NCBI GenBank assembly: GCA_951406725.2
Contig: OX597820.1
Coordinates: 57,846,001-57,910,000 of the forward strand
Length of the DNA stretch: 64,000 bases
Direction: 5' to 3'
Origin: Octopus vulgaris
Taxonomy: Eukaryota
Part shown: piece by piece, positions 38,408-40,063 of the stretch
Layout: each line of letters starts with the position of its first letter
Numbering within the stretch: position 1 is the first letter of the stretch
Position numbers and translations under genes: made by a program
The notes under the pieces: model-generated
What the model was told of the DNA's origin: nothing
Database searches by the model: none
What the model saw: the letters and a program-made list of their open reading frames with translations, nothing else

Positions 38408-38830
38408 TTCTTTTATTCTTTTACTTGTTTCAGTCATTTGACTACAGCCATGTTGGAGCACCGCCTTCAACGGTCTTAGTCGAACAAATCGACCCCAGGA
38501 CATTTCTTTTTAAGCCTAGTGCTTATTCTATCGGTCTCTTTTTCCGAACCGCTAGGCTACGGAAACGTAAGCACACCAACGCCGGTTGTCATGCGGTGAT
38601 AGGAGGACAAGCACAGACGCAAAGAGACACACACACACACACATACACACATACATGCATACACACACGCACATACATACACACACATATACGACAGGCT
38701 TCTTTCAGTTTCTGTCTACCATATCGACTCGACAAGGCTTTGGTCGGCTCGAGGTTATAGTAGTTGACACTTGCCCAAGGAACCATATGGTTGGGAAGCA
38801 AGCTTCTTAGCACACAGCCACGCCTGCGCC
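38408..38830 (-). mobile_element. SINE family B (left arm of palindrome)
   Basis: Near full-length B sequence on the minus strand. Confidence 0.87.
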
Positions 38831-39092
38831 TACACACATAAACACAATCATATATACATATATATATATATATATATACATTACAGAGATGTACTTGCAT
38901 AGCAAGTGACTTGATCTGAGATCGTGTGCTGGAACTAAAACAATTGCAGCGTAGAAGGTGTTTATAAGCAATTTAAGAAACACACAAAAACCGTTAGATT
39001 CACTTCAACATTTAAATTTAATTTGTCAAAATATTTTCGTCGCTTTGAGACCGCGACCTGTTCACTGACAAAACTTCAATGCCGCACGAAGT

Positions 39093-39143
39093 TTTGTCAG
39101 TGAACAGGTCGCGGTCTCAAAGCGACGAAAATATTTTGACAAA
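39093..39143 (+). ncRNA. Type I hammerhead-shaped motif with G3:C8 core (also 39022-39072 -, 39334-39384 -, 39405-39455 +, 37261-37311 -)
   Basis: TTTGTCA-GTGAACA-G-GTCGC-GGTCTCAAA-GCGAC-GAAA-ATAT-T-T-TGACAAA: 7-bp stem I, 5-bp stem II, palindromic stem III. Confidence 0.65.
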
Positions 39144-39640
39144 TAAAATTTAAATGTTGAAGTGAATCTAACGTGAATCTCTCTCTCTCTCTCTCTCTCT
39201 CTCTCTCTCTCTATATATATATATATATATATATATATATATATATATATATATATATATATATATAGAGAGAGAGAGAGAGAGAGAGAGAGAGAGAGAT
39301 TCACGTTAGATTCACTTCAACATTTAAATTTAATTTGTCAAAATATTTTCGTTGCTTTGAGACCGCAACCTGTTCACTGACAAAACTTCGTGCTGCATTG
39401 AAGTTTTGTCAGTGAACAGGTCGCGGTCTCAAAGCGACGAAAATATTTTGACAAATTAAATTTAAATGTTGAAGTGAATCTAACGGTTTTTGTGTGTTTC
39501 TTAAATTGCTTATAAACACCTTCTACGCTGCAATTGTTTTAGTTCCAGCACACGATCTCAGATCAAGTCACTTGCTATGCAAGTACATCTCTGTAATGTA
39601 TATATATATATATGTATATATGATTGTGTTTGTGTGTGTA

Positions 39641-40063
39641 GGCGCAGGCGTGGCTGTGTGCTAAGAAGCTTGCTTCCCAACCATATGGTTCCTTGGGCAA
39701 GTGTCAACTACTATAACCTCGAGCCGACCAAAGCCTTGTCGAGTCGATATGGTAGACAGAAACTGAAAGAAGCCTGTCGTATATGTGTGTGTATGTATGT
39801 GCGTGTGTGTATGCATGTATGTGTGTATGTGTGTGTGTGTGTGTCTCTTTGCGTCTGTGCTTGTCCTCCTATCACCGCATGACAACCGGCGTTGGTGTGC
39901 TTACGTTTCCGTAGCCTAGCGGTTCGGAAAAAGAGACCGATAGAATAATCACTAGGCTTAAAAAGAAATGTCCTGGGGTCGATTTGTTCGACTAAGACCG
40001 TTGAAGGCGGTGCTCCAACATGGCTGTAGTCAAATGACTGAAACAAGTAAAAGAATAAAAGAA
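39641..40063 (+). mobile_element. SINE family B (right arm of palindrome)
   Basis: GGCGCAGGCGTGGCTGTGTG head through to the GAAACAAGTAAAAGA tail. Confidence 0.87.

Follow-up and report, generated by a model that had tools for sequence, protein, structure and literature searches.

Penelope-like elements (PLEs) carry minimal type I hammerhead motifs in their pseudo-LTRs, and pairs of these motifs have been found on opposite strands, 100–700 bp apart (PMC4209133). In PLEs, an inverted, 5'-truncated copy adjoins the 5' end of the element, with (TA)n sequences serving as targets (PMC8557442), and the same pattern of inverted, truncated copies is recorded in PMC2377424. In the literature consulted, the pairs between core positions 3 and 8 reported for natural hammerheads are C3:G8 and U3:A8 (PMC4209133, PMC3088659), and an engineered C3G/G8C swap rescues part of the cleavage activity (PMC8495972), including in a PLE hammerhead (PMC11167929). 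With respect to inverted duplications, models with two template switches at palindromic junctions have been put forward (PMC13334657), and TA-to-TA junctions have been described (PMC13738482).

The window analysed here is a 64-kb stretch of AT-rich, animal-type DNA, rich in microsatellites and SINEs and interrupted by one 100-N gap. Self-BLAST of the window revealed a single palindrome (38361–40110; arms 98.4% alike over 1756 columns), the fold point of which (39238/39239) lies inside a (CT)n(TA)28(AG)n tract. The original prediction had read its parts, from left to right, as SINE(-), H1(-), H1(+), a self-complementary centre, H1(-), H1(+) and SINE(+), where H1 is a short repeat, and had placed an inner palindrome within each arm. 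All of this holds, the inner palindrome having 86-bp arms and a 10-nt loop. At the left outer junction, (TA)24 (38361–38408, 48 bp) is followed by a tRNA-type SINE on the minus strand (38409–38832), in which a 25-bp deletion, the same in both arms, takes out a B-box-like segment. We take this SINE to resemble octopus SINEs. Next come two H1 copies, c1 (38881–39077, minus strand), which lacks ~10 nt of its 5' end, and c2 (39078–39173, plus strand), whose near-full 5' end makes the 10-nt loop. The centre (39174–39303) contains a short local duplication, (CT)n, (TA)28 at 39212–39267 and (AG)n. In the right arm, c3 (39304–39399, minus strand) mirrors c2, c4 (39400–39596, plus strand) mirrors c1 and is identical to it, and the SINE at 39639–40062 (plus strand) mirrors its counterpart, with (TA)22 (40063–40106, 44 bp) at the right outer junction. 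The inner copies c2 and c3 are each just 96 nt long and 3'-truncated. Further H1 copies lie directly outside the palindrome: a solo full-length copy, c0 (37122–37329, minus strand; 208 bp, 92.7% alike to c4), and a fragment with an internal deletion (38302–38345, plus strand), in which the 5' 35 nt are joined to a downstream 10-mer and which adjoins the left arm.

Each H1 copy in the palindrome contains one hammerhead-like motif, and the four alternate in orientation as had been claimed (-,+,-,+), with cores starting at 39065(-), 39100(+), 39377(-) and 39412(+). The motifs span 39072–39022 in c1 (putative cut base 39029), 39093–39143 in c2 (39136), 39384–39334 in c3 and 39405–39455 in c4 (39448), such that the putative cut bases of the same-sense pair at 39136 and 39448 do have the predicted spacing of 312 nt. 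A custom type I scan identified five motifs of identical architecture in the window, these four and one in c0, at 37304(-). All have a 7-bp stem I, a 5-bp stem II opened by G10.1-C11.1, and the core G3 U4 G5 A6 A7 C8 A9, followed by one extra, unpaired G between positions 9 and 10.1. On the 3' side of the core, G12-A15.1, U16.1 and U17 are present in all five, the cut triplet is UUU, in line with an NUH cut site, and a palindromic AAUAUU takes the place of helix III. The core does not match CUGANGA, although G3:C8 still keeps a Watson-Crick 3-8 pair. The strict pattern was found in 0/20 dinucleotide shuffles of the window and the loose pattern gave 4 hits in 20; one caveat here is that the G3:C8 option entered the scan pattern only after the motif had been seen. 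Apart from the core pair, which is swapped to G3:C8, this candidate ribozyme conforms to the minimal type I hammerhead known from PLEs.

Rfam gave no matches at the gathering threshold in the 64 kb, and the 68 matches obtained at E ≤ 10 in 3.2 kb were all below gathering and included no hammerhead, most being miRNA models that fit hairpins. As there is no Rfam hammerhead match, the label 'ribozyme' here denotes a pattern fit rather than a curated-model or assay result. Variants within the H1 family gave no significant sign of selection on the core, with variable positions at 1/12 core sites versus 13/122 elsewhere (P = 0.63). Two weak hints came from the same variants: at one CpG, G12>A occurs at 1–4% versus 4–9% for C11.1>U, and an A>G change in stem I, present in 19–28% of the family, keeps a wobble pair. 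In c3, two CpG transitions turn one stem II pair from C-G to U-A. We considered this compensatory pair as proof of structure and rejected it, since CpG sites are prone to such transitions and the two may have arisen independently. A scan with a 22-base motif found 0 loci in viral contigs and one match in metagenome contigs, which we discarded as a 29-bp chance match in 57% GC DNA without the remaining motif. The literature searched, in the excerpts available, holds no account of H1 or of a natural G3:C8 family; work on dimer-cleaving PLE variants may list G3:C8.

A second, unrelated minimal hammerhead-like motif is located at 41190–41245 (-), with the core CUAACGA at 41237, A in place of G5, and an ACGT palindrome. 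This motif is probably dead, given the A for G5. The repeat that contains it also occurs at 21358–21471, 31265–31517 and 50941–51264, ends in (TA)n in every case, and likely represents another PLE pseudo-LTR family.

H1 is a short (~208-bp), dispersed, non-coding element of very high copy number and is not special to this locus. To survey the family, contigs of four public runs, three from organism A (three studies) and one from organism B, were matched to 38790–39105. One of these runs may be the assembly's own source, and 38790–38889, which includes locus-specific arm variants (38839, TA length), was skipped as repeat. Contigs matching the H1 region numbered 9,482–20,161 per run in 4/4 runs. 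Peak summed depth divided by the median depth of the pieces listed for each run (eight per run) came to 0.8–1.5 × 10^5, a rough value that gives an order of magnitude and no true copy number; H1 copies would number roughly 10^5. Loose ends of the survey contigs at 39073–39078 have one common 5' sequence, beyond which agreement drops to ~0.5, and the 5' boundary of H1 is therefore sharp, lying about 25 nt ahead of the core. Copy c0 is flanked by a 12-bp direct repeat (37110–37121 and 37330–37341), indicative of target duplication. Each of the six H1 copies found in the window either stands alone or is inverted, and head-to-tail H1 tandems are absent. Three separate H1 insertions fall within about 2 kb (37122–39596) and none in the other 61 kb of the window, a clustering that could reflect either local re-insertion or a favoured TA-rich target.

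What mobilises H1 was considered in light of its sequence and surroundings. No long open frame was found in any of the six frames, and hence we rejected the idea that H1 is a coding fragment. A MITE or Helitron was likewise set aside, as by eye there is no terminal inverted repeat longer than ~5 bases and there are no Helitron-type ends. ARAGORN reported 0 tRNA genes. A PLE is marked by an ORF for RT plus GIY-YIG beside its pseudo-LTR, or by an autonomous partner with which it shares that pseudo-LTR. No PLE-like ORF was seen among the 85 ORFs listed in the window, 7 of which were scanned against Pfam; we infer a PLE as the mobiliser, with no PLE ORF linked to H1. Other mobile-element remnants in the window include an open 358-aa mariner transposase frame at 47689–48765 (-) with HTH_48 and Transposase_1 matches in Pfam, a Helitron-like Pif1 helicase 2B fragment at 3956–4396 (+; Pfam), and a Tc1-like DDE_3 fragment at 22400–23017 (-; Pfam). 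At 17490–20860 there are two tandem gag-like frames, 73% alike, with a CCHC knuckle and a weak Pfam match in one, which are probably ORF1 remnants of a non-LTR element.

The inner palindrome, in which two H1 copies face each other head to head, was compared with the joints recovered in the family survey. Head-to-head H1 junctions make up 11 of the 15 joints listed (86 more lie beyond those listed), the other four being internal skips. Across the 11, the inverted copy is truncated at points between sense positions 60 and 168; eight were found in two or more runs, six have at least 30 letters on the short side, and three have short sides of 21–25 letters with unassigned sequence between the sides. 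Several of the listed junctions coincide with the inverted repeat of stem I itself. The joint from 39073 to 39017 reached a depth of 3,227 in run X4 and of 431 in run X3, much more than a single copy would give, and a palindromic H1 derivative with this joint seems to have been amplified as its own subfamily. The loop junction of the present locus (c1/c2) is not among the 15 joints listed; the c1/c2 pair is an extreme case of the family pattern, truncated by only ~10 nt. The inner fold-back is thus probably a family-wide trait, matching the inverted 5'-truncated copies of PLEs. Other PLE insertion traits seen alongside the inverted truncated copy of c1/c2 are a TA-rich target and the 12-bp target duplication around c0. 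At their 3' ends, c1 and c2 are ~110 bp apart in length, and the 3' end of the family falls in the part of the survey that was skipped. As suggested by the family-wide junctions, a putative Penelope-like enzyme would have reverse-transcribed H1 RNA into a TA tract to yield c1/c2, with c2 having lost, or never had, its 3' half.

The outer palindrome has a different character. It consists of a block (SINE, head-to-head H1 pair, CT tract) and then its reverse copy, and the copied block extends from the tail of the SINE as far as the CT tract, with all three junctions being (TA)n runs, of 48, 56 and 44 bp. The outer fold-back is thereby bounded by microsatellites rather than element ends and is probably different in kind from the inner one. 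With respect to timing, the 25-bp SINE deletion is private to the palindrome and common to both arms, and both arms also carry three family-rare H1 bases (38936, 38953 and 38970, at which other letters make up 85–99% of the family). It follows that the arms derive from one copy. The block appears to have been copied only once its SINE and its H1 were in place and had aged. As (TA)n reads the same on both strands, switching template twice gives exactly flank-TA-X-TA-inverted X-TA-flank, where X is the block. From the junction sequences, one can envisage that the nascent strand at the central (TA)n would re-anneal to the opposite template, that the block would be copied backwards to the left (TA)n, and that synthesis would then switch back to the centre and continue into the right flank. 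Such a path would produce X followed by inverted X and would neither delete sequence nor leave a third copy, in agreement with what is observed. As read from sequence, the likeliest origin of the palindrome is a Penelope-type insertion of H1 followed by a DNA template switch between self-complementary TA runs, to which we assign a probability of roughly 0.55. The earlier interpretation, successive fold-backs that also copied flanking DNA, is upheld in that there appear to have been two inversion events, of which the second took flanking DNA, but the two probably differ in kind.

Differences between the arms were previously taken as an argument against artefact. They do exist: in addition to the three named in that context, others were found, for a total of six substitutions (38522 C/A, 38839 T/C, 39083 C/A, 39110 C/T, 39124 G/A and 39145 A/T), a 6-nt change in TA length and a CT/TA border displaced by 1 nt. 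The derived change is on the left arm at 39083 and 39145, and on the right arm at 38522, 39110 and 39124, two of these being CpG transitions. As an argument, however, they are weak, as a substitution rate of 0.8% (6 in 772 bp) could also stem from a pair of alleles, or from polishing errors where a repeat is this abundant. Indeed, a less probable reading, which we nonetheless take seriously, is that the inner pair is real and the outer duplication is an assembly artefact, in which long reads that fold back, or an assembly-graph path crossing self-complementary (TA)n nodes, entered the block twice and polishing introduced allelic or mis-mapped variants into the arms. That all three junctions are (TA)n of 44–56 bp, a sequence that lets an assembly path reverse strand, is consistent with this, and the divergence of the arms is allele-like, heterozygosity in octopus being near 1%. 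In addition, four of the six substitutions cluster in the inner H1 copies, within the inner 103 of the 772 bp (P about 0.004 if uniform), although such clustering fits error-prone synthesis plus hairpin mutagenesis as well as it fits polishing noise or consensus errors. Work cited by PMC12870357 puts fold-back reads at 1–4% of nanopore genomic reads. On the other hand, the single gap in 64 kb and the resolved long microsatellites of the window suggest long reads, and if only a few of many such reads carried an 830-bp insert, their consensus would tend to lose it. Artefactual fold-backs mirror the rest of the read, whereas here the sequence returns to new flank, and the differences are substitutions on both arms, two of them at CpG. 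A long palindrome was centred on just one of 40 TA runs tested, namely this locus (42 runs of at least 20 nt are present in the window, and the two at its start were left out), which also speaks against an artefact.

Another route to the same arrangement would be at the RNA level, with PLE machinery making cDNA from a host transcript across the block and inserting it nearby in cis, in inverted orientation, at the neighbouring (TA)n. PLEs favour TA targets and can start reverse transcription inside RNA (PMC11167929), and the three H1 insertions within 2 kb, with none in the other 61 kb, would be in keeping with such activity. However, the ends of the block do not coincide with an H1 end or putative cut site, the block instead running from the AG tract to the SINE tail; an upstream promoter would be required; and template switching gives the same junctions in fewer steps. 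We regard this route as improbable. Taking the template-switch and RNA-mediated routes together, we lean towards the outer duplication being real. Elsewhere in the window, a MITE-like 223-bp imperfect fold-back with ~80-bp arms (78%) lies within CA/TG repeats at 33670–33892, and an inverted pair of ~600 bp (86% identity) is found at 53294–54703, near a degraded mariner-like frame that gave no Pfam match. Older inverted pieces (70–87%) of a second SINE-like family are present at 58368–58928, and this family also occurs in tandem at 943–1410.

The original prediction held that a transcript from either strand would release a unit-length monomer and permit dimeric folding, or would instead form ~800 bp of dsRNA. 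Predicted folds agree with the second outcome, provided that the locus is transcribed, and make the first unlikely. On either strand, an antisense copy precedes each sense motif and so is transcribed first, and all 50–51 paired bases of each sense motif pair with this antisense neighbour in the predicted folds. Forcing the hammerhead form in the folded full-length transcript is predicted to cost 70–79 kcal/mol for one motif and 149 kcal/mol for both, compared to 1.3 kcal/mol for a lone copy. Even for a transcript starting at the H1 5' end, the most favourable start, the predicted cost for both motifs is 71.5 kcal/mol. A transcript, if any, is thus predicted to form long dsRNA that hides all four motifs. 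The locus would have no function of its own, and host read-through would give an ~800-bp hairpin with the same-sense motifs paired to antisense and uncleaved.

These predictions bear on whether the locus could be a retrozyme-like cassette, with the two same-sense hammerheads cutting as a dimer to release a 312-nt linear or circular monomer. The spacing and orientation of the motifs are correct for this, helix III is palindromic, as in the dimer-cleaving motifs of PLEs (PMC4209133), and the C3G/G8C change partly rescues a PLE hammerhead (PMC11167929). Against this stand the folding penalties given above and a dimer helix III that consists of six A-U pairs, with a predicted stability of -0.2 kcal/mol. 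Moreover, the 312-nt product would comprise an H1 remnant, microsatellite and antisense H1, and is no repeat unit; retrozymes, as described in the excerpts available, are head-to-tail tandems (PMC7229834; 10.64898/2026.07.22.740005); and the SINE promoter box is deleted. We therefore consider a cassette of this kind very improbable.

Collectively, these data indicate that two things came together by chance at this locus: an insertion pattern already known for PLEs, and an inverted duplication with microsatellites at its borders, the latter maybe an assembly error. The palindrome itself most likely represents either a passenger rearrangement or an error of assembly. What is mildly new is a putative high-copy natural G3:C8 hammerhead-like family. 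A more ambitious scenario, which we put forward as speculation and think unlikely, is that H1 is a previously undescribed SINE-like, non-autonomous Penelope-type family (~10^5 copies) whose natural G3:C8 hammerhead still cleaves as a dimer, and that head-to-head insertion plus TA-mediated inverted duplication create long-hairpin loci from which small-RNA silencing or A-to-I hyper-editing would be directed at all members of the family, making the ribozyme repeat its own silencer. A natural G3:C8 hammerhead, if true, would offer a natural test of a swap found, in the literature excerpts available, only as an engineered rescue. Neither Rfam nor any descriptor for which CUGANGA is mandatory picks up the motif, which suggests that hammerhead counts in such genomes are too low. 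Furthermore, head-to-head junctions recur in this 200-bp element with truncation at many different points, and make a compact data set on how PLEs form inverted copies.

How does this locus compare with described systems? Like the minimal hammerheads of PLE pseudo-LTRs, as they appear in the available excerpts of PMC4209133, the H1 motif has type I topology, the extra base 9/10.1 and G10.1-C11.1; it has a palindromic region at 15.2–16.2 (15.1–16.1 in one listing) and no stable helix III; and its copies are mostly solo, with some opposite-strand pairs nearby. Unlike those motifs, it has G3:C8 in the core rather than C3:G8 or U3:A8 (PMC4209133, PMC3088659), and it also differs in its UUU cut triplet, 7-bp stem I and 5-bp stem II, and in its host element, which is 208 bp long, begins sharply at the 5' end and shows no ORF (PMC4209133). 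Complex PLE insertions (PMC8557442, PMC2377424) resemble this locus in the head-to-head junction, the variable truncation, the TA-tract target and the target duplication of the solo copy. They differ in that a 30–40-bp tail is described there, compared to 3' ends that differ by ~110 bp here, and in that the outer duplication here includes a SINE and is microsatellite-bounded. Animal non-LTR retrozymes (PMC7229834; 10.64898/2026.07.22.740005) are, like H1, short, non-coding, high-copy and hammerhead-bearing, and H1 is probably a non-autonomous PLE derivative, as they are. In contrast to these retrozymes, as presented in the same excerpts, H1 shows no head-to-tail units and its motif is minimal and not canonical, abundant monomeric circular RNA being a further retrozyme trait; the same-sense motifs of the present locus are separated by antisense H1 and microsatellite, unlike head-to-tail retrozyme units. 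Finally, template-switch inverted duplications (PMC13334657; PMC13738482) share with the outer palindrome self-complementary junctions and two switches that restore direction. The arrangement here differs in that, as assembled, it is X plus inverted X and no triplication, since a single TA run is able to act in the first switch and again in the second.
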